A stretch of DNA of 64,000 nt from Vulcanimicrobiota bacterium (GCA_050250895.1 JBFWNU010000001.1:3840149-3904148); one strand, 5' to 3'. Shown: positions 76-21,134, counted from the first letter of the stretch. The notes: generated by a model not told the origin, from the letters alone. A program made the numbers and translations.

Positions 76-3000
76 ATGGATTATTTGCAGGGCAAAGGCT
101 TTGTCTTTCTTTCCAGGGATACGATCGAGCGCGAGGTTCCCTGGCTGACCCCCGACGACTACACCATTTCGACCTTCGAAGACGCACCCATTCTGCTGCC
201 TGGGCTCGAACTCCAGCCCACCTCCCTGCCCGAACCGAAGCTGGCGGTGGTGACCAGCGATAAAGCTCTCTATCGGCAAGACGACGACAAGGTGCATCTC
301 TTTGTCTATGACCCGCTGGCGGCTGGCCTGCAAACCCAGCTGTGGGTGCGCCAGGCCTCGACGGTGGTGCGTAAACTGACGGTGGGATTCGACCGCTACG
401 GCGCAGGGGCGGCGGTACTGGCGGGCCTGCCGGCCGGAAGATACTCGGTGGGTTGGGAGTGGGACGAGCGGGGGGGCTGCAACTTCGAGGTCGCTGGCTA
501 CCAACTCGCGCCGCTGGTGGCTAGCCTCGAGCAACTGCAACGCCACCAGAACCTGGTCGACCTGGAGTTGCAGGTGGAGAGCTTCGGCCAACCGGTCGAG
601 GGGGGCATGTGGGTCGAACTGGTCGAGGCCGGCCGGCCCGTCCGTCGGGGCTACGCGGTGGCTCGGGATGGGTGTTTGCGGGTTCGCCTCGAACTCGACG
701 GCGAGGGGCCTTATAGCCTCAATCTCCAGCGAGCCTCGGAAGGCAGTCAGACGGCCACCGTGCCGCTGGTGGGCAGCACCCGGCGAGAGCGGGAAGAGAC
801 GATTCTCTCGACCCTGGGCGGGATCTGGAGCGGCTCGCTGATGCCGGGCCAGGACAGTCACTGCGTGCGCGGTCTCTATCTGCGCGAGCTGGGTCGAGCC
901 GAGGAAGCCTTTTGTCTCGAGCGAGTGGATGGCCGGAGAGTTCGGCTGATTGCCCAGACTGCGGCTCGCCAGCTGAGGGTGGTGGTGCTCGACCCGCTGG
1001 CGGTGCCTGGAGGAGAGCCTGGACCCCAACCTGATCTTAGCCAGGCCTGGAGGCTGGCCGGAGAGCAACGCTGGAAGGCAGCCCTGGAAGCGCTCCGGGG
1101 GCATTTCCATCCCGCCGCAGCCGCCCTGGAGGCGCGTTGCCGTTTGGCCCGGGGCGACCGCGATGGGGCTCAGGCCGCCGTTCGACGAGCCTTGCGCGGC
1201 GGCTATCGACGCCGCGACCTCGAGGATTTGAGCCAGTGCCTCTGGGTGGGCCAGCGAAGTATGCTGGTGAAATCGGTGCAGGCAGGGCAGGTCATCGAAT
1301 TGGAAGTGCCGGCCCCGATGGGCGTGGTGGCCCTGGGAGCCTTTCTTGACGACGGACCGTGGGAAGGTTGGGCAACTACGCTGGCGCCGCCTGCGGCTCA
1401 GGCCGACCTCACGCTGCCGCACCACTGTCAGGCCGGAGAAACGATGACCATCGAACTCGACCGACCGGCTGACAGCCGTCTCTATGTGGTGGTCAAGGAC
1501 CTGCGGCTGGGCTCTGAGAGCCACCCTGAGGCCAGGCTGGGCGGGCGCATTCTAGACTATGCTCGCTTGCTCGGCTCGCAGACCCGCACCGGCTCGGTGC
1601 GACCCCAGCAAACCTGCGCCTTCGGGGGCTTCTCGCCCGCCCACACCGAGCAGGCCCTCGAGAGCCTGGCCGGGGAGGGTGTAATCTCTCGGGCTCAGCT
1701 GCGCGAGATTCGGCAACGGATGCAGTGGGCCGGTCTTAGCCTGTTCGAGGCGGCCTCCCAGGCCGGTCTCGAGTGGGGACGGCTGGCTGCTCACCTCTGC
1801 GGGTTGGAATACCTCGAGACGATCGAGCCGGATAGCGAGATGGCGCAGTTGCTGCCCGAGCATCTAGCCCGTCGCTACCGGGTCTTTCCCCTCAGTCATT
1901 CCGATAATCTGCTGCGCGTGGCCATGGTCGATCCCAGGGATATTCTGGCCCTCGACGATATTCGAGTGATCACCGGCTTTGAACTCGAGCCCGTGGTCGC
2001 CTCACTAGAAGCTATTCACGCGGCCCTCGACCAGAGCTATGGGGTCACCGACCTGGTCGAGATCGAGGAAACCGTCAAGGACATCAGCGCTCTCGACTTC
2101 GGCTGCCTGGAGTTCGACGACCTGCACGAGGCCATAGCCCTCGACCGACTGGCGGGGCCGCGCTACCTGACCGCAAACGTGGCCGACGAGCCAGCCACCA
2201 AGGCCGAGGTCCTGTTTGCGGGTTGGGTCGAAGAGGCGCAGTTGCAGCTGCTCTTGCCCTCGGTCCCGGCTCAATTCGAGGTCCAGGCCTTGCTGGTCCG
2301 GCCCGATGACTGGAGCTTTCAACGCCTCACCTTCAGTTCGACCCGCCCCGTCCAGGCGCACCTGCAGTTGCCTCAATTCGTACATCCCGACGATCAGGTG
2401 GTCGGCTGGCTGGCGGTGGTAGCGGGCACCGGGCCCTTTCGGGTTTTGCTCGAGCGCGACGGAGTCGAGGTGGCCCTCGAACACCAGGTGGTGGACCTGG
2501 GCGCCAAGCTTCTCTTTCCGGCTTACCCCGGAGCCTACCTGGCTCGCGTCGAGTCGATCCCGACCGGGCTCGGGGACCTGGTCCGGGGTCGGGTCGAGCT
2601 ACCGGGCCAGGTGTCAGGTCTGCGTCGGACCATCGCCTGGCTGGGCCAGGGCGAAAGCCTCGACCGGGGCGACGACCCGGAGATCGTCAGCCTGCACCGG
2701 CTCGACAGTATTGCCGGTCCGATGGGCCGGTTGGCCCGGGCGACCAGCGACTACACCCATCTTTGTTGCGAGCAGACGGCCGCCAAGATTCTGGCTGCGG
2801 CCGCTCTCTGGAGCCTGGCCGATGGCTCGAACCGCACTCAGTATGAAGCTGTCATACGGGCCGGCCTCGAGCGCGAGCAGCGCATGCACCGACCGGGAAT
2901 GGGCTTTGCCCTCTATCCCGAGTGTGGCCGGCACGACAGCTTCTGGGGACCGAAAGCAGCCCTGTATCTACGCCAATTGAGCCTGTTGGATGCGCCTGAA

Positions 3001-4356
3001 CTAGGGCCTCTGGTTGAGCAGGCGGTGGCCATGGCCGACGACGTGTTGAGAGCCTCCAATCTCGCCTGGCCCCCTCCGAGTAAAGACCCTCAGACGACCT
3101 ATCTGCAGGCTCGCTTTGGTCAATCCACTCTGGAAGCCCTCGGCGCGGCTCGTCACGGCTTCCAGGCTGATGGGGCGGTCGCAAAGCGCCTGGCAGCTGC
3201 CTACCGGGCCGCGATTTTGTTGCGGCTGGGCGGTCCCTCGGATCGGGCCGCGGCCATGGTCCTGGCTGGCGAAGTGCTGAGTCAACTCGGTGAGGACGGT
3301 CGCCTCTATTCGACTTGCGATTCGATCGCGGCCCTGGCCTTGATGAGTGAAATGCGCCAGGCGACCCCCACCGGCAAGGGTGAGTATCGACTGATTGGCG
3401 AGGCCGATGATCCCGATCGTCTCGAGGTCCTTGACGGCGATGTTCTGGTTGAGGTTACGCGCCGTTTTCGCCAGGACTGGTCCGAGCTCTCGGGTTCGGT
3501 GGCACTCGAGGCGGTGCTGTCCACCGCCAGGCCGGCGGTGGGTCAAGCTCTCGAACTCGAGCTGAGCTTGCCCGCCGGCTATATAGCCGGCGACCTTGCC
3601 CATATCTGCCTCCCGGACTGTCTGGCGCGCGTCAGCGGCGGCGGCCAGATTCGGTCCTTCTCGCTTGACTTCGAGGGCCGGTCGAAGGTGACCGTTTCTC
3701 TGCAAGCCATTCATCCCACCGGTGGCCGTGAGCAACGTTTGCTGGTGTGTCTGCGCAACATGTTCGAGGAAGAGCGGGTGGGCCTGCCAGCGCCGTTGCT
3801 GGTGGCCGTGGCCCAGGTCCAGCCGGGAGAGGCCTCCCTGACGCTACCGCTCGAACTGTGCCGGTTGGACCTGACGGCCGAGGCCGCAGCGGTCGAAGGA
3901 CCCGCCTTGCGAGATTTCGTGGCCCAACTGCAAGAAGAGGCCCGGCGTCGGGGCGCGACCTCGTTGTTGCTGGATTGGTCCGAGCCAGGATTGGCTCGCC
4001 TACGACTGCGTCTCGCCGGCAAGATGGTCGAGCTGATGCAGCTGCCCGAGGCGGTGGCCGACGGTCTGGCCAGCCAGCTGGCCGAAGCCGGCGCTACCCT
4101 GACGCCCAGTGCCCTGGGAATGATCGCCAGCCTCGAGTTTGTCTCATCGGTCTCGCGGCTGGAATGGGTCCGGGCTCTGGCTCAGGTGGCCGCCGCTCTC
4201 GAGGGGGATGGGTCGCTCGACCTCGAGCGCTTACACAAGGCCCGTCCGAGCCAGCCCAATCCGAAGGTCGATCAGCTCTTCGCCATGCTGGCCGGCCCTG
4301 AGCCGGCAGCCGACGAGGTGCGACGGCTGATGTTCGAGCTGGTGGGCGAGCGTTAG
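76..4356 (+). CDS. Alpha-2-macroglobulin-like thioester protein with inserted PilB/GspE N-terminal (MshEN/T2SSE_N) domain
   Basis: MG2-like N-terminus (DKALYRQDDDKVHLFVYD), LQLPQFVHPDD A2M segment, CCEQT thioester motif at 2764-2778, GFALYP..SFWG thioester-domain motif, ICLPDCL..; LLPEHLARRYRVFPL...VAMVDPRDILALDDI is T2SSE_N; SD AGGGAGG. Confidence 0.75.
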   Translation: MDYLQGKGFVFLSRDTIEREVPWLTPDDYTISTFEDAPILLPGLELQPTSLPEPKLAVVTSDKALYRQDDDKVHLFVYDPLAAGLQTQLWVRQASTVVRKLTVGFDRYGAGAAVLAGLPAGRYSVGWEWDERGGCNFEVAGYQLAPLVASLEQLQRHQNLVDLELQVESFGQPVEGGMWVELVEAGRPVRRGYAVARDGCLRVRLELDGEGPYSLNLQRASEGSQTATVPLVGSTRREREETILSTLGGIWSGSLMPGQDSHCVRGLYLRELGRAEEAFCLERVDGRRVRLIAQTAARQLRVVVLDPLAVPGGEPGPQPDLSQAWRLAGEQRWKAALEALRGHFHPAAAALEARCRLARGDRDGAQAAVRRALRGGYRRRDLEDLSQCLWVGQRSMLVKSVQAGQVIELEVPAPMGVVALGAFLDDGPWEGWATTLAPPAAQADLTLPHHCQAGETMTIELDRPADSRLYVVVKDLRLGSESHPEARLGGRILDYARLLGSQTRTGSVRPQQTCAFGGFSPAHTEQALESLAGEGVISRAQLREIRQRMQWAGLSLFEAASQAGLEWGRLAAHLCGLEYLETIEPDSEMAQLLPEHLARRYRVFPLSHSDNLLRVAMVDPRDILALDDIRVITGFELEPVVASLEAIHAALDQSYGVTDLVEIEETVKDISALDFGCLEFDDLHEAIALDRLAGPRYLTANVADEPATKAEVLFAGWVEEAQLQLLLPSVPAQFEVQALLVRPDDWSFQRLTFSSTRPVQAHLQLPQFVHPDDQVVGWLAVVAGTGPFRVLLERDGVEVALEHQVVDLGAKLLFPAYPGAYLARVESIPTGLGDLVRGRVELPGQVSGLRRTIAWLGQGESLDRGDDPEIVSLHRLDSIAGPMGRLARATSDYTHLCCEQTAAKILAAAALWSLADGSNRTQYEAVIRAGLEREQRMHRPGMGFALYPECGRHDSFWGPKAALYLRQLSLLDAPELGPLVEQAVAMADDVLRASNLAWPPPSKDPQTTYLQARFGQSTLEALGAARHGFQADGAVAKRLAAAYRAAILLRLGGPSDRAAAMVLAGEVLSQLGEDGRLYSTCDSIAALALMSEMRQATPTGKGEYRLIGEADDPDRLEVLDGDVLVEVTRRFRQDWSELSGSVALEAVLSTARPAVGQALELELSLPAGYIAGDLAHICLPDCLARVSGGGQIRSFSLDFEGRSKVTVSLQAIHPTGGREQRLLVCLRNMFEEERVGLPAPLLVAVAQVQPGEASLTLPLELCRLDLTAEAAAVEGPALRDFVAQLQEEARRRGATSLLLDWSEPGLARLRLRLAGKMVELMQLPEAVADGLASQLAEAGATLTPSALGMIASLEFVSSVSRLEWVRALAQVAAALEGDGSLDLERLHKARPSQPNPKVDQLFAMLAGPEPAADEVRRLMFELVGER

Positions 4357-5768
4357 GGCCCGGTCACTGGTTCGACCACCACATCCCGTGGGCTGGTGCC
4401 CACGGGAAAGGGCGAGCCGGTGATCTCGGTCAGGGTGGCGGCGTCGAAGACAGTCAGGTTATTGGTACTGTTGTTGACGATCAGGATGTGGTCGGCGGTT
4501 TCGTCGTAGGCGATGGCATAGGCCGAGCCGGCGGTGGGAAAGGTTCCTACCACGCTCATGTCGGTGGCGTCGAAGACGGTGAAGCTGTTGTTGGTGAAGT
4601 TGGCCGTATAGATGCGATCGTGCACACTGTCGACAGCCACCGAGATGATGCGTCCCACTCCGGCAAAAGGAGAGCCGGGGATGGCCGTCAGGGTCGCAGC
4701 GTCGAAGACCGCCACCGTCGAAGAGGTGTCGTTGGTGATGTAGACGCGATTGCGCACCGGGTCATACTCGATGCCGTCGGCGAAGCTGCCGCCGGTAGGA
4801 AAGCTGCCTACCAGGGCCAGACTATTGGCGTCAAAGGCTTGAAAGTTGCCCGTGCCGCTATTGTTGCTGATGTAGACGCGGTTGTTGTTGCCGTCGAAAG
4901 CCAATTCGCCCGCTCGCGTAGCGGTGACCGGAGAGCCGGTCAACTCGGTCAGTCCGGTGGCGTCATAGGCGTGGAGATGATTGGTGAACAGCGAGCTGAC
5001 GTAGACCAGATCGCCGGCTTCGTTATAGACCACATCGGCAGGAAGCGAAAAGGCCCCGGTGGGAGCGCCGGCCACCGGAGTGAGGGTGGCCAGATCGATA
5101 CCGGTGAATTGACCGCTACCGTTGAGGGTGACGAACACGCGCTGGTGAGTGACGTCATAAGACAACCCGAAGGGGCCGCTGCCGGCGCCCAGAGAGAGTG
5201 GCGAGCCAGTCAGGGGCGTATAGTCGCCGGCCGACAGGATGGTCAGATCGTCGGAGCCTTCGTTGCTGACGATCACCCGCCGGCCCGTTGGGGGCGGAGT
5301 CGGACTCATGGTGGGACTGGGTTCCGGTGAGGGGCTGGGCGAAGGAGAGCCGTCGAAAGAGGCAGTCACCAGGGTGGTCTGGCCAGCCAGGACGTTGACC
5401 GTTGTCTCGAAGGTGCCGATGGGGGAGGTGCCGCTATCGAAGGCCAGCACCTGGATCAGGCGCAGGCCCGGCGGGATACCGCCGATGCGAACCGGGCCGC
5501 TCTGCTCGAGGGTGACCACGGTTTGCCCGACCACCGCCAGACGAGTCTGAGGATCGAGCACGTCGATGGTCACTCGCTGCACCCCGGTGGTGGCCAGCAA
5601 GAGGTCCTCGACCCGGGCCACCCCGCTCTCCAGGTCGACCCGCAGGGTGATCGAACCGCTGCTGCCGCCGGGTCCGGGGCCTTCGGAACCGGTGCCTCCG
5701 GGCGCCGAACCGCCCCCTCCTCCGCAGCCCGCCAATAATAACAAAAGAATGGCCAGGAATCTTCGCAT
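4353..5768 (-). CDS. Lipoprotein with YVTN/YncE-type beta-propeller
   Basis: MRRFLAILLLLLAG-C lipobox (start moved to ATG 5768), Pro/Ser linker, repeated RVYxxNxxsxxVxVFDA blades. Confidence 0.85.
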   Translation of the reverse strand: MRRFLAILLLLLAGCGGGGGSAPGGTGSEGPGPGGSSGSITLRVDLESGVARVEDLLLATTGVQRVTIDVLDPQTRLAVVGQTVVTLEQSGPVRIGGIPPGLRLIQVLAFDSGTSPIGTFETTVNVLAGQTTLVTASFDGSPSPSPSPEPSPTMSPTPPPTGRRVIVSNEGSDDLTILSAGDYTPLTGSPLSLGAGSGPFGLSYDVTHQRVFVTLNGSGQFTGIDLATLTPVAGAPTGAFSLPADVVYNEAGDLVYVSSLFTNHLHAYDATGLTELTGSPVTATRAGELAFDGNNNRVYISNNSGTGNFQAFDANSLALVGSFPTGGSFADGIEYDPVRNRVYITNDTSSTVAVFDAATLTAIPGSPFAGVGRIISVAVDSVHDRIYTANFTNNSFTVFDATDMSVVGTFPTAGSAYAIAYDETADHILIVNNSTNNLTVFDAATLTEITGSPFPVGTSPRDVVVEPVTGP

Positions 5769-5857
5769 CGACTTCACTCCAGTCCGAGATTCGAGGCGGC
5801 TTCGGTCGCAGGAACTGTCTCCCTCCGCGGGAATTTCAGGTTTCTGACGGTATTTTC

Positions 5858-6703
5858 GTGAAGGTCTTCTATTCACCATACCAGAGCGTGGCCTCGAACC
5901 ACTCGTTTAGTCCCAGTGCCGGCAAGCCGGCCCTGCTGGTGGAGCAGTGGCGGCGACGCTGGCCTAGCCTCGACCTGGTCGAACCCAGGCCCGTCACCGT
6001 CGACGAGCTTTGCCTGGCCCATCAGCGGGAGTATGTCGAGGACGTGCTGGCCTGCCGACGGCCCAACGGCTTCGGTAACGAGTCGCCAGAGGTGGCCCGC
6101 TCCTTGCCGTGGACGACCGGTTCGTTGGTATCGGCAGCCCGCCACGTCGTGGCTAACGGGGGGGCGGCCTGCTCGCCGACCAGCGGCTTTCATCATGCCG
6201 GCTATCGGTGGGGCAGTGGCTTTTGCACTTTCAACGGGCTGATGGTGGCCGCCTTGCTGGCTCGCCCGGTCGACGGCATCGTAGGTATCCTCGATTGCGA
6301 CTTTCACTATGGCAACGGCACCGACGACATCCTGGCCGAACTCGGTGTCGAGTTCGTGCGCCACTTTACTACCGGTGGGATGCGTAGCCTGCGCGATCCT
6401 GACTATTTTCTCGACGAGTTGCCCGGGCTATTGGCTTCGATGGAAGCCGGCCTGCTCATCTATCAGGCCGGGGCCGATGCCCATCTCGACGACCCGTTGG
6501 GCGGCTGGATGACCACCGAGCAACTGCGCCGGCGCGACCGGGTGGTGTTCGAGTTCTGCGCCCGGAACAGGGTGCCGGTGGTATGGAACCTGGCCGGCGG
6601 TTACCAATCCGACATCCAGAAGGTGCTCGATTTGCACCACGCCACCATGGAAGAGTGCCTCAGGGCTTTTCCTCCGGCAGCTACCACGCCCCAGCTGCAT
6701 TAG
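5858..6703 (+). CDS. Histone deacetylase family protein
   Basis: SGFHHA, GFCTFN, DCDFHYGNGT, YQAGADAHLDDPLG, LAGGY motifs. Confidence 0.93.
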   Translation: MKVFYSPYQSVASNHSFSPSAGKPALLVEQWRRRWPSLDLVEPRPVTVDELCLAHQREYVEDVLACRRPNGFGNESPEVARSLPWTTGSLVSAARHVVANGGAACSPTSGFHHAGYRWGSGFCTFNGLMVAALLARPVDGIVGILDCDFHYGNGTDDILAELGVEFVRHFTTGGMRSLRDPDYFLDELPGLLASMEAGLLIYQAGADAHLDDPLGGWMTTEQLRRRDRVVFEFCARNRVPVVWNLAGGYQSDIQKVLDLHHATMEECLRAFPPAATTPQLH

Positions 6704-16305: not shown

Positions 16306-17148
16306 CTACGCTGCGATGAGCGCTTCCTGTTTGGGATGGTCTCGATCGTAGCGTTCTTTGATTTCCTCGAGCTCGCGCGAGTAGCGCTCCATGGTGCGGT
16401 GGGCCGAATCCATACTCTGGTCGAAGTCCTCATAGGCTCCATCGGTCTCGAACGGGCCGTACTGGGGGGCTCGGGTGATGTCGATCTTGATGGGCGTCTC
16501 CTCATCCCACATCTGGTGGATCCACTCCTCGGCTTTCAGGGGATGGTCGGCCATGCTCGGGTCCATGATGTAGGCCGAGACCTGGTGGGACTCGTCTTCG
16601 GCAAACACCAGGGGAGCTACGTGATACCACCACTCGGCGTGCATATACTTGTTGTCGGCCTCGAGTCGTCCCGGGTTGCCGATGTCTTCAAGCATCACGA
16701 ACATCTTGCCGCAGTTGACCTGATCTTCGCGCATGGTTTCGCACATCTTGTGGGCTCGGGCGTAACAGCCGTCGGTGATATATTCGAAGGGGATCTCGGG
16801 ATCGCCGGCCAGTTTGTGAAACTCGGCGAAGAGCTGATCGCTGGTCAGGATACGCCCTTCTAACCGCGACACGTCCTGATGATATTGAATGCGAGCGTCC
16901 TCGCCCAGGTCGCCGAGCAGGCGTTGCTCGAGGGCGCTCTGATTTAGATCGCGGTTGGAAGGCTCTTCGTTGAAGTCGTCATCGCCACCACTGACAAGCT
17001 CCCCGTGGGTGAGCAGCCACTCGCGGTGAGTGGCAAAATCAGCACTGCGACCCAGCTCGAGGGTATCGGCGAAGGCCTCTTTTGGCGTGGTCTCGATTCG
17101 GCGTGGCGTGAGCGTTGGCGTGTGACCTCGATGACCGATCGGATTCAT
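16306..17148 (-). CDS. Protein-glutamine glutaminase (deamidase) family protein
   Basis: IPFEYITDGCYARAHKM (Cys), WWYHVAP (His), IMDPS (Asp), as in Chryseobacterium protein glutaminase. Confidence 0.88.
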   Translation of the reverse strand: MNPIGHRGHTPTLTPRRIETTPKEAFADTLELGRSADFATHREWLLTHGELVSGGDDDFNEEPSNRDLNQSALEQRLLGDLGEDARIQYHQDVSRLEGRILTSDQLFAEFHKLAGDPEIPFEYITDGCYARAHKMCETMREDQVNCGKMFVMLEDIGNPGRLEADNKYMHAEWWYHVAPLVFAEDESHQVSAYIMDPSMADHPLKAEEWIHQMWDEETPIKIDITRAPQYGPFETDGAYEDFDQSMDSAHRTMERYSRELEEIKERYDRDHPKQEALIAA

Positions 17149-17164
17149 ATGTTCCCCCTCGTTG

Positions 17165-18541
17165 TCAGGCCGTCTGTGCCGGCCCTCGTTCTAAGACGTT
17201 GCTGATACAGCGGATGGCTCCCCGCCACGAGGTCAGGGCCGGCAGTTTGAGGGGGACGACCTCAAAGCCGAGCGATTCATAGACCTGACTGGCGCGGCGG
17301 TCCAAAGCCGGCAAATCGTAAGTGGGCAAGAAGACGCGCTTTACCTGGTTGCCGCCGTCGTCGATGTAGTTCTCCATCAGGCAGTTGTTATAGGTCACCC
17401 AAGAAAGTTCGGGCGGGCCCTGGAGATAGGGCAGCCGCACTACGTTGTAGCCACGCTCGCGCATCAGCTGGGCGTTGTGGTCGAACTGATGCTGCAGCAG
17501 CGGGTCACCCTCGGTGTTCTGATGGACCAGCGCGGCCAGGTGGTCCTGACCCTCGGTGCCCAGATTCTCGTTGAGGCGGCGGTTGTGGTCGGCGTATTGC
17601 TCGGGGCTGAGGCTGGCCACGGTCGAAAGGGCCCAGCTGGGATCGCCCACCAGGATGGTGTGGTCATCCACAGGGGTCAGCCCCATGTCGATGTGGAAGG
17701 TGGCCGGCACCTCCAGTTCGGGCGTTTTCGGGTCGTCGGCCCCCACCACGGTGACCGGGCGCCCGTATTTCTCCTCGAAGATGCCCTGAGCCAGACCCAA
17801 CCAGTGCTCTTCACCGGGACCCCGGGTCGATTTGTAGAGGTTGGGTTCGAAGTGATAGCCGACCTTGGTGTTGTCTTCGACCATCCTCACCGAGAACGGC
17901 GTGGTCGATTGGCCGGGGTGCTCTTCGTCGTACAGCTTCTTGGCCGTCAAATAGAGCGAGGTGAAACCTAGAAAGCTCTCGTTGCTGTTCGAGACCTCGT
18001 CGCCACCGTCGGTGACCAGGCGCTTGTCTGCGTCGAGTTCGACTCCGGCGAATTCGGCGATGCGCGGGGGCAACAGCTCGTCGTCGCCGTGGGGTCGCAT
18101 GGTGGTCTGGCCGAGCAGGCGCGAGGTGCCGTTGGCGTTGCGCAAGCCGACCATCTGATCGCGAGCCCACATGGTGATGTCGAGGCCATCGTTGACCATC
18201 AAGCCGAAACGCTCGCGGTTGGGAATGTTGCGCTCTTCCAGGCGTTGGGCCAGGGCCTGGCGGTCTTCGTCAGACTCGAGCACGATGGTGAAGCGCGTCT
18301 TGTCGTCCATGGTCTCGAACACCTGGAACCAGGCGTTGAAGACCTCGTTGCGGATGTTGGTGGGCACGTCGTGATCCAGCTGCAGAGCCAGGTGGCGAAT
18401 TTTGCCAAACGGCTCGGAGTAGACGCGGGTGGGAGCCTCGCTCAGGCTGACCTGATCGGTGGCCACGGCCGGTCCCTGGGCGGGACGGTTTGCGGGTCTA
18501 ACGGAAAGCGCCGGACGTTGGGTGACAGCCGAGATCTGCAT
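17165..18541 (-). CDS. Pentein-fold arginine/agmatine deiminase-like protein
   Basis: MWARD, DGGD, FHIDM, TYNNCL, GAIRC catalytic motifs. Confidence 0.8.
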   Translation of the reverse strand: MQISAVTQRPALSVRPANRPAQGPAVATDQVSLSEAPTRVYSEPFGKIRHLALQLDHDVPTNIRNEVFNAWFQVFETMDDKTRFTIVLESDEDRQALAQRLEERNIPNRERFGLMVNDGLDITMWARDQMVGLRNANGTSRLLGQTTMRPHGDDELLPPRIAEFAGVELDADKRLVTDGGDEVSNSNESFLGFTSLYLTAKKLYDEEHPGQSTTPFSVRMVEDNTKVGYHFEPNLYKSTRGPGEEHWLGLAQGIFEEKYGRPVTVVGADDPKTPELEVPATFHIDMGLTPVDDHTILVGDPSWALSTVASLSPEQYADHNRRLNENLGTEGQDHLAALVHQNTEGDPLLQHQFDHNAQLMRERGYNVVRLPYLQGPPELSWVTYNNCLMENYIDDGGNQVKRVFLPTYDLPALDRRASQVYESLGFEVVPLKLPALTSWRGAIRCISNVLERGPAQTA

Positions 18542-19111: not shown

Positions 19112-20185
19112 CTAGTTAAACGACAACCCGTAGCGGTTGAAGCAATACATGGGCAGTTGCTGTTCGAGTTGCTCGAGCATCGCCCCCGGCAACTGGGTCT
19201 GCTCGGGATAGATGCAATGGGCCAGCTCAAGGCCCTGATAGATGGTCTCGCCAGCGACGACGAATCGCTGCAGAGTCTGTTGGACGCGGCTCTTGATCAC
19301 GGTGAGCATGGTCTCGATGTGGTCCTCGGGGGACTGCTCGGCCAGGATGATGACAAAGGTCTGCTCGTCGATGCGACCCAGCACGTCGCTGCCCCGAAGC
19401 AATCCGGCCAGGCGTCCAGCCGCGAAGCTGAGCACCCTGGGAGAGGCATCCGGTAGCGACACTCCGACCAGGGCTACTCGCTGGCGATAGCGCTGGGCTC
19501 GCTTGATCAACAAATCGAGCAAGTGGAACGTCAGAGCCCGGTTGGGAAGACCAGTGATGGGGTCGTCTAGTCGTTGCAGGGTTTCGTGGGCCAGATGAGC
19601 CTCGACCCGCGAGGCGCGTTCTTCGGCGGCCCGCACCCTTCGCTCGGCCAGTAACCATTCGCTCTCGGCCAGGTAGGCTCGCTCTTCCGCTGTCTCGACC
19701 TGGGCCTCGAGGTCGTTGGTGCGTTGGCGCGCTCGCGCCAATTGGGCTTCGGCTCGCCTCAGTTCCTCGTGTAGCTCTTCGCAATCCAGGCGAAGCAACA
19801 GCCTCGAGCTGGCTTCCTCCGCTTGCTCCTCGGCAAAGGCCATGGCCTCGCGCACGTTCGCCCGGGCGTGATCAAGGCGCTCTTCCATCTCGCGAATGTG
19901 TTCTTCAAGACGCCTGGTCTGGGCTCGCGACACTTGCATCTCTTTGGCCGTGCAGTACGGCGTCAGGGTCACCAGGAGCGCCGGATTGCCGTCCCAATCG
20001 AACATCTGCAAGCGCACCTGTTCCTGGCCAAGGCGCGGCAACACGGTGCCCGTCAACCTGCCCAACGGCTTGCCCAAAAAACTGGCCGCGGCGGGATTGG
20101 CATAGCGTATCTTTCGGGCTGCATCAACCACCATGACGGGGTCGGGCAGGCTCTCGAGAATGCGAACGGAGTCAGTCTTCTTCAT
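19112..20185 (-). CDS. PAS / coiled-coil / degenerate GGDEF protein
   Basis: ILESLPDPVMVVD..YANPAA; DPITGLPNR; RGSD I-site; active site reads IDEQTF. Confidence 0.8.
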   Translation of the reverse strand: MKKTDSVRILESLPDPVMVVDAARKIRYANPAAASFLGKPLGRLTGTVLPRLGQEQVRLQMFDWDGNPALLVTLTPYCTAKEMQVSRAQTRRLEEHIREMEERLDHARANVREAMAFAEEQAEEASSRLLLRLDCEELHEELRRAEAQLARARQRTNDLEAQVETAEERAYLAESEWLLAERRVRAAEERASRVEAHLAHETLQRLDDPITGLPNRALTFHLLDLLIKRAQRYRQRVALVGVSLPDASPRVLSFAAGRLAGLLRGSDVLGRIDEQTFVIILAEQSPEDHIETMLTVIKSRVQQTLQRFVVAGETIYQGLELAHCIYPEQTQLPGAMLEQLEQQLPMYCFNRYGLSFN

Positions 20186-21134
20186 CTCTAACCTCCCTCT
20201 TGCAACTTGAGGCCACCACTTCCATCAACTCTTTGCCGAAGGGGTCAACGAAGATATAGCGCTTGCAACCGCGGATGGTGGGTCGGGTGAGCATGTCTCC
20301 CACCAACGACCGGGTGCTGGCTTCGCCGGCCCTGTCCACCAGACCGCGCACGCCCTCAAAGCGGTACTCTACCAGATTCCCTGAAGGCTCGCTAAGACGC
20401 ACCGTCAGGCCCTTCGAGTTGCGTTCATAGCCTCGCAGTCGACCCTCGTGCCCACTGCCGGTGAAATACTCGTGGGACGGTTCTACCTCGAGCGGCACAT
20501 CGGGAGCATAGGCATCTTCAAAATGTAACTGGTGGTCGATGGGAGCGTTCTGGCGCTGACGGGCGATTTTTTCGTAGCGGCGCAGGGCGAGCCGGTTTTC
20601 GGGGCTGACGCGGACAAACTGTAGTCCGACCTTGAACAGGTTACGCAGCCATTCTTTGCACCACACCACCTGGGCGCAACATTCGATGGGGGGCAAGCTG
20701 TCGACATCAAACTCCAGTCGCAGCAACACCGAGGCCCCGTGGGCCACTGCCTCGGGCAAGACCAGTTGCAGACCGCCCTGACTGAAGTCAAGGGTGTTGG
20801 TCCGATAGCCCGGCAGGTCTTTCGAAACCACGCAGAGTTGGCATTCGACGCGTTGGTAGGCTCGCAAGGCGGTGTCGTCGTGCCCTGTCTGGCCCCAGGC
20901 TGGCAGAGGCTCGTTTCCCAAGAGCACTGCCACCAGGGCAAACCCACCTCCGGTCAGGTTGCGGCAACTCTCGACGACCACTTGCATGGGGCGGGTGCGA
21001 CTGGCATCGGGTAGATTGATGCGGACCATCAAGATCTTCCCGCGTGCGTAGAAGCGGTCCGACCGCAACACCAACAGTCTCTGTTCACCGTCGAGGTAGT
21101 CGACAACCGGACCGGCAAGAAAGTCTAAAAGCAT
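20172..21134 (-). CDS. PilZ domain protein
   Basis: RAYQR and DFSQGG motifs, AQVVW, VGLQF. Confidence 0.85.
   Translation of the reverse strand: MLLDFLAGPVVDYLDGEQRLLVLRSDRFYARGKILMVRINLPDASRTRPMQVVVESCRNLTGGGFALVAVLLGNEPLPAWGQTGHDDTALRAYQRVECQLCVVSKDLPGYRTNTLDFSQGGLQLVLPEAVAHGASVLLRLEFDVDSLPPIECCAQVVWCKEWLRNLFKVGLQFVRVSPENRLALRRYEKIARQRQNAPIDHQLHFEDAYAPDVPLEVEPSHEYFTGSGHEGRLRGYERNSKGLTVRLSEPSGNLVEYRFEGVRGLVDRAGEASTRSLVGDMLTRPTIRGCKRYIFVDPFGKELMEVVASSCKREVRDEED

Follow-up and report, generated by a model that had tools for sequence, protein, structure and literature searches.

A signal-less A2M/C3/TEP-like thioester protein with PilB-derived inserts encoded in a Vulcanimicrobiota genome

Comparison with known thioester proteins and pilus ATPases

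The described thioester proteins, which include the alpha-2-macroglobulins (A2Ms), complement C3 and the thioester-containing proteins (TEPs), are secreted or periplasmic traps and opsonins. Here we describe P0001, a 1426 amino acid (aa) protein encoded by a single open reading frame (ORF) at 76..4356 (+) in a 64,000-nucleotide stretch of a Vulcanimicrobiota bacterium assembly (GCA_050250895.1 JBFWNU010000001.1:3840149-3904148; this whole stretch is called the window below, and positions are counted from its first letter). A preliminary description made from the DNA sequence had portrayed P0001 as a signal-less A2M-like protein carrying two fragments of the pilus ATPase PilB/GspE, one of them in the bait position. 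By fold and motif it is a member of the A2M/C3/TEP superfamily that lies outside the YfhM-type periplasmic family; the superfamily is known, and it is the location and the integrated domain set of P0001 that are new.

The bacterial type I A2Ms (Escherichia coli YfhM/ECAM, PDB 5a42 and 4ziu; Salmonella A2M, 4u48) have the same MG7-CUB-TED-MG8 order as P0001 (VIA superposition, Z 13.3 and 12.4), and YfhM/ECAM has its CxEQ thioester motif at the homologous site. P0001 differs from the YfhM type in the absence of a lipoprotein signal (by hydropathy scan), in its smaller scaffold (~1000 aa vs ~1650 aa, with fewer MG domains), in lying below Pfam A2M detection and in having a tetratricopeptide repeat (TPR)-like insert, an N2-like tail and, at the bait site, the folded N1 domain and the linker of PilB. 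A PBP1c-type gene is paired with the A2M gene in E. coli-type loci, and none was seen among the ORFs scanned around the P0001 gene. Pseudomonas aeruginosa MagD, a periplasmic type II bacterial A2M encoded in the mag operon, is also a bacterial A2M homolog with an atypical context; unlike it, P0001 keeps the thioester motif and has no mag-type operon. The literature describes type II bacterial A2M forms that lack the thioester (PMC5764988, PMC3735191) and archaeal A2M homologs that typically have signal peptides (PMC8416519).

P0001 finds its best structural matches in C3/C5, TEP1, A2ML1 and CD109, which differ from it in being eukaryotic immune proteins that are secreted. As in C3/C5, the activation site of P0001 is occupied by a small helical fold with an acidic segment after it and not by a bare bait loop, but the domain inserted in C3/C5 is the anaphylatoxin, which is unrelated to the MshEN domain found here, and P0001 has neither the C345C nor the receptor-binding domain of these eukaryotic proteins. 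With the PilB/MshE/GspE ATPases it shares the N1 fold and sequence, the linker and the N2 fold. It differs from them in that N1 and N2 are split by ~570 aa of A2M body and that the ATPase domain is missing from the entire family: a hidden Markov model (HMM) of the C-terminal ATPase domain (CTD) matched 0 of 189 family proteins, and P0001 has no T2SSE Pfam match. In addition, P0001 lacks the cyclic di-GMP (c-di-GMP) motif of MshE-type MshEN domains and the P-Q-D-G hairpin of PilB N2. No account of a signal-less A2M/TEP family or an A2M-MshEN fusion came up in full-text searches, though the supplementary MshEN-architecture tables of PMC5013675 could name such a fusion; the one paper that contains both A2M and MshEN terms is unrelated to it.

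An A2M-type scaffold with a conserved thioester motif

A word-indexed search returned 54 homologs, and in the 55-row alignment that includes P0001 the proteins have their full length in common except for one variable region. The thioester motif CCEQT (aa 897-901; 2764..2778, +) has C897, E899, Q900 and T901 invariant in 55/55 rows and C898 nearly invariant, and the family profile puts it on the C-L-E-Q-T thioester site of E. coli YfhM/ECAM. Its retention in all 55 proteins implies selection on the motif, and the Cys897-Gln900 thioester bond is putative. Sequence methods applied to P0001 alone do not find the superfamily: Pfam and NCBIfam scans returned MshEN/PilB-type matches and no A2M model, a phmmer search of the body (aa 700-1245) against the PDB gave no match at E<=10, and identity to the structural matches among C3/C5/TEP1/A2ML1/CD109 is 9-13%. 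The Pfam A2M model PF00207 is matched by 11 of 24 homologs at E<=0.1 (best 1.5e-6), an Atlas feature search returns A2M clusters at 0.90-0.92, and the family profile matches E. coli YfhM/ECAM at E 8e-6 and Salmonella A2M at 1.2e-3.

Structure was predicted with two template-free AlphaFold2 (AF2) models on 55-row alignments, covering residues 1-720 and 700-1426, with predicted local distance difference test (pLDDT) values of 87.3 and 86.9, respectively; they are confident across the domain junctions, the linker discussed below excepted. The first model matches C3 beta chains (Foldseek E 1e-11) and superposes on A2ML1, CD109 and A2M (VIA Z 11-12.4) and also on C3/C5 beta chains. The second matches C5/C3 alpha chains (Foldseek E 1e-17), Salmonella A2M and ECAM (Foldseek E 1e-14), TEP1 (VIA Z 15.5, 508 residues aligned) and ECAM 4ziu from MG7 to the C-terminus (VIA Z 13.3), and both programs place the order MG7-CUB-TED-CUB-MG8 in the C-terminal half of P0001. 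The A2M scaffold with its CxEQ motif that the preliminary description had proposed is thus real, and visible to profiles and structure only.

The scaffold is compact at ~1000 aa without its inserts, small enough to serve as a convenient structural model. It opens with an MG-like beta-sandwich block (aa 1-508; 76..1599, +) comparable to the C3 beta chain or A2M MG1-MG6 (A2ML1, Z 12.4, 385 aligned; C3 8cem_E, model 33-554 to chain 30-661). After the bait-site insert come MG6-alpha/MG7/CUB-like beta domains (aa 709-877; 2200..2706, +), which align with C3 6ru5_B (model 7-545 to chain 764-1497) and ECAM 4ziu (model 54-548 to 1015-1653), and an all-helical thioester domain (TED; aa 878-1098; 2707..3369, +), recognized by its helices in the model and by the match of the isolated C5 thioester domain 9y6c to model residues 179-399 (Z 12.4, root mean square deviation [rmsd] 3.5, 205 aligned). 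CUB/MG8-like beta domains (aa 1099-1245; 3370..3810, +), placed by alignment and model and bearing the family-conserved R-N-M-F-E-E motif, end the A2M body. Within the MG block lies a TPR-like helical insert (aa 322-385; 1039..1230, +), identified from model helices and from TPR Pfam matches in homologs; it is ~128 aa in most family members, and the P0001 copy is ~30 aa shorter. As a separate observation, this insert (family profile positions 353-450) has matches in PDB chains named "PDZ domain-containing protein", in their TPR part (9is4, 9iox, 9imn and 9iiu; E 5e-8 with the family profile).

A PilB N1 domain and linker at the bait site

Residues 518-655 (1627..2040, +) form an MshEN/GSPII domain, the N1 domain of PilB, at the bait/anaphylatoxin position. 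Pfam PF05157 matches residues 580-657 at E 2.8e-19 (69.3 bits vs a 23.1 cut-off), weak NCBIfam PilB/GspE equivalog matches cover the same stretch, and phmmer against the PDB finds PilF/PilB. The module superposes on MshE-N 5htl with VIA Z 14.0 over 132 residues, and also on XpsE-N, on the Xanthomonas PilB-N/PilZ complex and on PilF GSPII domains. The host genome encodes a 577-aa ATPase whose residues 16-181 share 45% identity with the module (E 5e-44); in a comparison across the genome this ATPase is the best match (46%), ahead of the three other MshEN ATPases (31-36%). Since the 577-aa ATPase is encoded in a pilB-pilT-pilC-sigma-pilin-pilD-pilM operon, it is the type IV pilus PilB, and it is referred to below as own PilB.

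An acidic PilB-type N1-N2 linker (aa 656-708; 2041..2199, +; linker HMM E 5e-14) follows, of which aa 659-708 are predicted to be disordered (pLDDT <50). Identity to own PilB is unevenly spread: it is 64% in the linker (29/45 positions), 49% in the alpha/beta (C-terminal) subdomain of N1 and 15% in the N1 four-helix subdomain (10/65 positions). A planctomycete family member (genome G002) has the same pattern, with an embedded linker 62% identical to that of its ATPase, the initial ~30 linker residues being almost identical, and a four-helix subdomain only 17% identical; in several family members linker identity to PilB is 60-70%. The N1 four-helix subdomain is also where conservation is lowest in PilB itself.

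The MshEN domain and linker together come after the C3-beta-chain-like block and before the block whose alignment with C3 starts at residue 764, and this puts them at the position of the A2M bait region or the C3 anaphylatoxin/alpha'NT. In the models, disordered residues 659-708 fall where the A2M-type activation segment between the MG6 halves is expected, and they are a candidate bait or contact segment. The PilB/GspE N-terminal domain that had been noticed at the bait position is therefore upheld by the PF05157 match, the 5htl superposition and the identity to own PilB.

A degenerate N2-like domain in the C-terminal extension

P0001 continues for 181 aa past the A2M body, and this extension carries a degenerate T2SSE/PilB N2-like domain (aa 1275-1356; 3898..4143, +). 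In the model these residues (model 576-657) superpose on N2 of EpsE 1p9w with Z 11.8 and rmsd 1.5 Å over 84 residues and, across the N2 domains of EpsE, PilF and Geobacter PilB, with Z 11.6-11.8 and rmsd 1.5-1.6 Å over 81-84 residues (Geobacter PilB 5tsh_F, Z 11.6, chain 180-288). In P0001 alone the domain is below sequence detection by the N2 HMM and by BLASTP, which found nothing between the extension and own PilB (best E 4.8) and reached a best E of 0.35 against a decayed PilB paralog of genome G025. Intermediate homologs bridge the gap: the P0001 tail is homologous to the tails of P0182, P0056, P0057, P0135 and P0004 (E 9e-20 to 5e-5), the P0083 tail is 39% identical to own PilB residues 178-292 (E 1e-23), the tails of P0184 (6e-7), P0050 (3e-5) and P0049 (5.5e-5) also match this region, and a profile of eight tails matches the PilB N2 alignment with an hhalign probability of 88.9% (E 2.4e-6, 115 columns).

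In P0001, P0002 and P0003, 22 residues have been deleted from the N2-like domain, including a P-Q-D/E-G hairpin that is kept in related tails, so that the wording of the preliminary description, a decayed copy of the next PilB segment at ~3890-4090, is apt. Its suggestion that both fragments be aligned to the genome's own PilB gave a divided outcome, the first aligning clearly (45%, E 5e-44) and the second escaping BLASTP. The protein ends in a helical tail (aa 1361-1425; 4156..4350, +) that is shared with the tails of P0004, P0056, P0057, P0135 and P0182 and has no assigned fold.

A possible source of the N2-like tail is seen in G025, a genome of the same order, in which a family member with MshEN domain and linker (L147:1477-5505) is followed directly downstream by a gene for a PilB paralog, P0310 (~380 aa; L165:162-1310). 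P0310 is shortened and catalytically dead: Walker A is gone, whereas N2, the C-subdomain of N1 and the Cys-rich zinc motif are retained. It is 25% identical to the PilB of the P0001 host over residues 80-523 (E 3e-28). Fusion with a neighbor such as P0310 is a plausible origin of the tail.

Distribution of the family and exchange of the bait-site insert

An exhaustive phmmer search of 1.84 billion representatives gave 322 matches at E<=1e-3 and 187 at E<=1e-30, and a scan of one genome per species gave 132 relatives. The family is present in Myxococcota, Acidobacteriota, Obscuribacterales, large sulfur bacteria, Planctomycetota, Longimicrobiales, Xenobia, Riflebacteria, Desulfobacteraceae and others, with members in Minicystis, Archangium and Bremerella, and it is thus conserved in many phyla with large, complex genomes while keeping the thioester motif and, by hydropathy scan, lacking export signals. 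In source annotations family members go under the name "hypothetical protein" or "type II protein secretion system protein", the latter of which is misleading. The end-to-end architecture of P0001 recurs in P0002 (87% identical) and P0003 (69%) from other assemblies, and the P0001 type of architecture is also found in P0004, P0057, L147 and others, again in independent assemblies.

The occupant of the bait site varies among homologs, as the preliminary description had wondered. In most members it is a proline-rich low-complexity stretch of 90-200 aa (up to 35% Pro), a composition that suggests an exposed linker. When 189 family proteins, fragments included, were scanned with HMMs from the PilB lineage, N1 (MshEN) was found in 37 and N2 in 2, the latter being an undercount given the evidence from intermediate homologs and structure. 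Among the 35 N1 carriers that could be judged, N1 ends <=180 aa from the MG7 block in 34; the exception, P0073, has N1 at its N-terminus (aa 8-140), ~500 aa ahead of the MG7 block. P0145 has N1 (aa 467-605) and N2 (aa 632-744) together at the bait site. We also note that in the Polyangiaceae-type members P0008, P0011, P0013, P0025, P0030 and P0042 the bait-site linker consists of repeated G-F-G-P-P-P-P-like units (29-35% Pro), which look like more than a spacer.

A FastTree phylogeny of the MG7-MG8 body (153 rows, 35 with MshEN, after dropping proteins <1000 aa or with a body match <=400 aa) requires MshEN presence to change at least 13 times, and 8 of these changes are forced by branches with support >=95. 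A second tree compares 39 embedded MshEN domains with 29 ATPase-borne domains from six genomes (the host and five others with an MshEN-type family member, the latter contributing 33 matches); it carries the caveats of a short domain (150 columns), a quick search, some long branches and a sample of six genomes. On it the Desulfobacteraceae embedded copy L111 pairs with ATPase L096 of the same genome (support 98), the Thiotrichaceae copy L089 from G001 sits with the G001 ATPases L093/L098 (68-75% identity) within a clade of support 100, planctomycete embedded copies group with the planctomycete ATPases L086/L088 (support 99), and the P0001 domain groups with own PilB (support 83). A single clade of all embedded copies is rejected (delta log-likelihood 320; approximately unbiased test, p 1e-5). 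The embedded cassettes thus resemble the ATPases of their own lineage in several phyla, and have been captured or refreshed several times at one site.

Cellular location

A crude hydropathy scan of P0001 found no N-terminal hydrophobic stretch, signal peptide, lipobox or transmembrane-like segment, in accord with the signal-less character first attributed to it. Among 150 long family members the scan flagged nine, all for a hydrophobic 10-mer at residues 18-31 that is a conserved G-x-A-F-A-F strand with charged residues before it, and an internal 19-mer was slightly above threshold in five. FHA and MshEN domains are cytoplasmic, and the fusion of some family members to one or the other strengthens the case for a cytoplasmic location. 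P0001 is therefore probably cytoplasmic, as judged from the hydropathy scan with added weight from the fusions. If so, the family would extend thioester-protein chemistry, with its putative thioester, to the cytoplasm, a location that was unreported in the literature searched.

Possible roles of the PilB-derived modules

A PilB-related role for P0001 is likely, because the cassettes are lineage-matched and have been captured repeatedly at one site. We tentatively favor, as a little short of probable, the proposal that P0001 is a thioester trap of the cytoplasm into which a PilB mimic has been built as sensor or bait: an intracellular covalent trap in the style of A2M/C3, with a trigger segment that imitates the front end of the cell's pilus motor (an "integrated decoy"). 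The catalytically dead PilB paralog next to the G025 family member also speaks for it. Since the bait-site segment copies the N1-linker (and N2) of PilB, P0001 would most likely monitor agents that act on that region of PilB. The scaffold, like its relatives, would be latent until the exposed segment at the bait site is cleaved or perturbed. A factor directed at the N1-linker-N2 part of PilB, whether to attack or to bind it, for example a protease or a PilB inhibitor encoded by a phage or competitor, would engage the mimic in PilB's place, and cleavage or distortion of the exposed linker could then release the scaffold and expose the Cys897-Gln900 thioester, which would covalently fix the attacker or a nearby target.

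Agents of this kind are known. According to PMC11656802, the phage protein Tip binds the N2 domain of PilB (residues 187-227) and the phage proteins Aqs1 and Zip also target PilB or PilZ-PilB; the preliminary description had named Tip and Aqs1 as phage proteins that target PilB. The same source has PilZ binding the N1 domain of PilB, N2 domains packing on neighboring CTDs in PilB hexamers, and a contact of the EpsE N1-EpsL type inferred for PilB-PilM. A lineage-matched PilB-derived module that sits exactly at the trigger site and has been captured several times independently gives a concrete and testable hypothesis on what a cytoplasmic thioester protein senses, and may connect the phage inhibitors that target pili with a countermeasure of a new type.

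A more far-reaching version, which we regard as rather unlikely, is that the family constitutes a guard-and-decoy system, an intracellular complement/A2M-like covalent immune sensor spread over several phyla, with a regularly refreshed copy of the PilB N-terminus that fires on a PilB-targeting factor from a phage or competitor. In plant NLR integrated decoys, a copy of the pathogen's host target is built into a defense protein as a sensor. This likeness would be one of working only: in both cases the copy matches a protein of the host itself, the proteins and kingdoms are unrelated, and an immune-sensor role of P0001 is hypothetical. Were this version true, the family would be a prokaryotic counterpart of complement activation and of the plant integrated decoys; even if the decoy idea is wrong, the family adds a substantial, unannotated branch to a superfamily of medical importance.

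Several points weigh against a trap with a PilB mimic as its trigger. Activation of A2M and C3 requires proteolysis, and we know of no precedent for their activation by mere binding. One would expect a faithful decoy to retain N1 in full, yet the four-helix subdomain is 15% identical to PilB, and the N2-like domain has lost its hairpin. As PilB varies in the same way, the conservation pattern of the cassette may reflect a general constraint and not mimicry, and the lineage matching is equally well explained by docking on a lineage-specific partner. The cytoplasmic location comes from a crude hydropathy scan, the family has no conserved neighbor gene, for a protease or any other partner, and the P0001 gene is dispensable among relatives (see below).

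Docking is itself the substance of the main alternative, one that we consider possible, though doubtful, in which the N1-linker (and N2) is an address tag that binds PilM, PilC, a PilZ-like cofactor or the PilB/PilT ring, so that the thioester protein would be brought to the type IV pilus machine on its cytoplasmic side, where it would regulate the motor or act on entering material. EpsE N1 contacts EpsL in the type II secretion system, and it is the equivalent C-terminal N1 subdomain, with the linker, that is better kept in P0001 (49% and 64% vs 15%); this preferential conservation of a putative stator-contacting subdomain leans toward docking. Lineage-matched cassettes are also what co-evolution with a lineage-specific partner should produce, and the contacts of N2 with neighboring CTDs in PilB hexamers (PMC11656802) fit as well. 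A tag could, however, sit at either end of the protein, whereas the cassette is at the internal bait/anaphylatoxin site in 34/35 cases and was captured there repeatedly, and this position at the trigger leans toward sensing; moreover, the N2-like domain is degenerate, and the gene lies ~1.57 Mb from the pilus operon on the same contig. Co-folding of own PilM (21-row alignment) with P0001 aa 520-705 scored 0.00 and gives no answer either way. It is unlikely that P0001 lacks any PilB-specific role and serves as a protease trap or quality-control factor of a general kind in the cytoplasm, with a bait site open to any insert and an MshEN domain that is a neutral or structural filler, picked up through recombination with the abundant MshEN genes. 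That most members have only a proline-rich linker at the bait site, that others carry TPR or FHA additions and that Lon-type protease genes are nearby in six loci would fit this, but only one kind of cassette (PilB N1 plus linker, sometimes N2) is found, in 37/189 proteins; it was captured repeatedly, with N2-like tails alongside, and its linker is held at 60-70% identity to PilB in several members, where neutral filler should decay.

MshEN is a high-affinity c-di-GMP receptor (PMC5013675), the P0001 domain has the fold of c-di-GMP-bound MshE and of PilF GSPII domains, and GGDEF and PilZ genes lie 15-17 kb downstream, so a thioester protein gated by c-di-GMP through its MshEN domain was considered. 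It is highly improbable: a regex search for the relaxed 24-residue motif of PMC5013675 in 39 embedded MshEN domains found the tandem motif in 0/39 and a single copy in 1/39, with none in P0001 or own PilB, and the nucleotide-binding four-helix subdomain is the least conserved part. On this test c-di-GMP sensing by the P0001 domain was rejected. Finally, the joining of an A2M gene to PilB fragments is almost certainly not an assembly or gene-calling artifact, a danger to which the preliminary description had drawn attention. The frame is continuous on a 3.9-Mb contig, the same architecture is seen in independent assemblies, and the AF2 models are confident across all junctions but the linker; nothing in favor of an artifact was found, and the public reads (one DNA run, 0.08 word share, short contigs, and no RNA run) span no junction and are evidence neither way.

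The P0001 gene, its locus and its occurrence among relatives

The ATG at 76 is the first start past the upstream stop, and residues 6-11 of P0001 already align with homologs and are conserved there. The gene lies on a 3.9-Mb contig of a 9.5-Mb genome, neither in nor near the pilus operon, and the nearest named relatives of both P0001 and the host PilB come from Eremiobacterota/Xenobia metagenome-assembled genomes. In a search of 30 relatives with P0001 as query, the scaffold was present in 4/5 genomes of one sister family (37-39% identity) and was found in 0/15 genomes of the same family, including same-genus G006 (98% complete), and in 0/10 genomes of a third family (f3), so the gene is dispensable. 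Against G006 the locus shows ~70% nucleotide identity in matches scattered over contigs, and synteny is uninformative.

The P0001 gene is bordered by beta-propeller genes that are unrelated to it and recur at no other family locus. A BamB/PQQ-like propeller gene (350 aa; L006:15072-16124) ends 100 bp upstream, and a YNCE/lactonase-like propeller gene (508 aa; window 4353-5879, -) converges on the P0001 gene, their stop codons overlapping by 4 nt. Across 79 family loci no universal conserved partner gene was found. The only recurrent candidate operon partner in these loci is a ~200-aa MerR-family gene, directly upstream on the same strand in 11/79 (Longimicrobiales, Acidobacteriota, Myxococcota and others; examples are L033:7174-7800, L037:7183-7812, L023:3755-4378 and L064:7258-7818), which is not in the window. 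Lon-type protease genes are near a family member in six loci: one lies ~5 kb upstream of the P0001 gene (L006:8814-11066), another adjoins the family member on the same strand in a Haliangiales locus (L044:4991-7402), and the four others are in Obscuribacterales and may share synteny.

In G025, a clostripain-family (C11) cysteine peptidase gene and a PLD-nuclease/SNF2-helicase gene (L166:2993-4942 and L166:6673-9450) lie 0.5-7 kb upstream of the family member, an arrangement seen in this genome only that hints at a defense island with a nearby protease. Within the window, a PAS-GGDEF diguanylate cyclase gene and an adjoining PilZ-domain gene (19112-21134, -) are located 15-17 kb downstream of the P0001 gene, with no link to it shown. 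Neighboring genes at 16306-18541 (-) encode a 280-aa protein with a Gln_deamidase_2 domain and another of 458 aa that gives a weak arginine-deiminase-like match.

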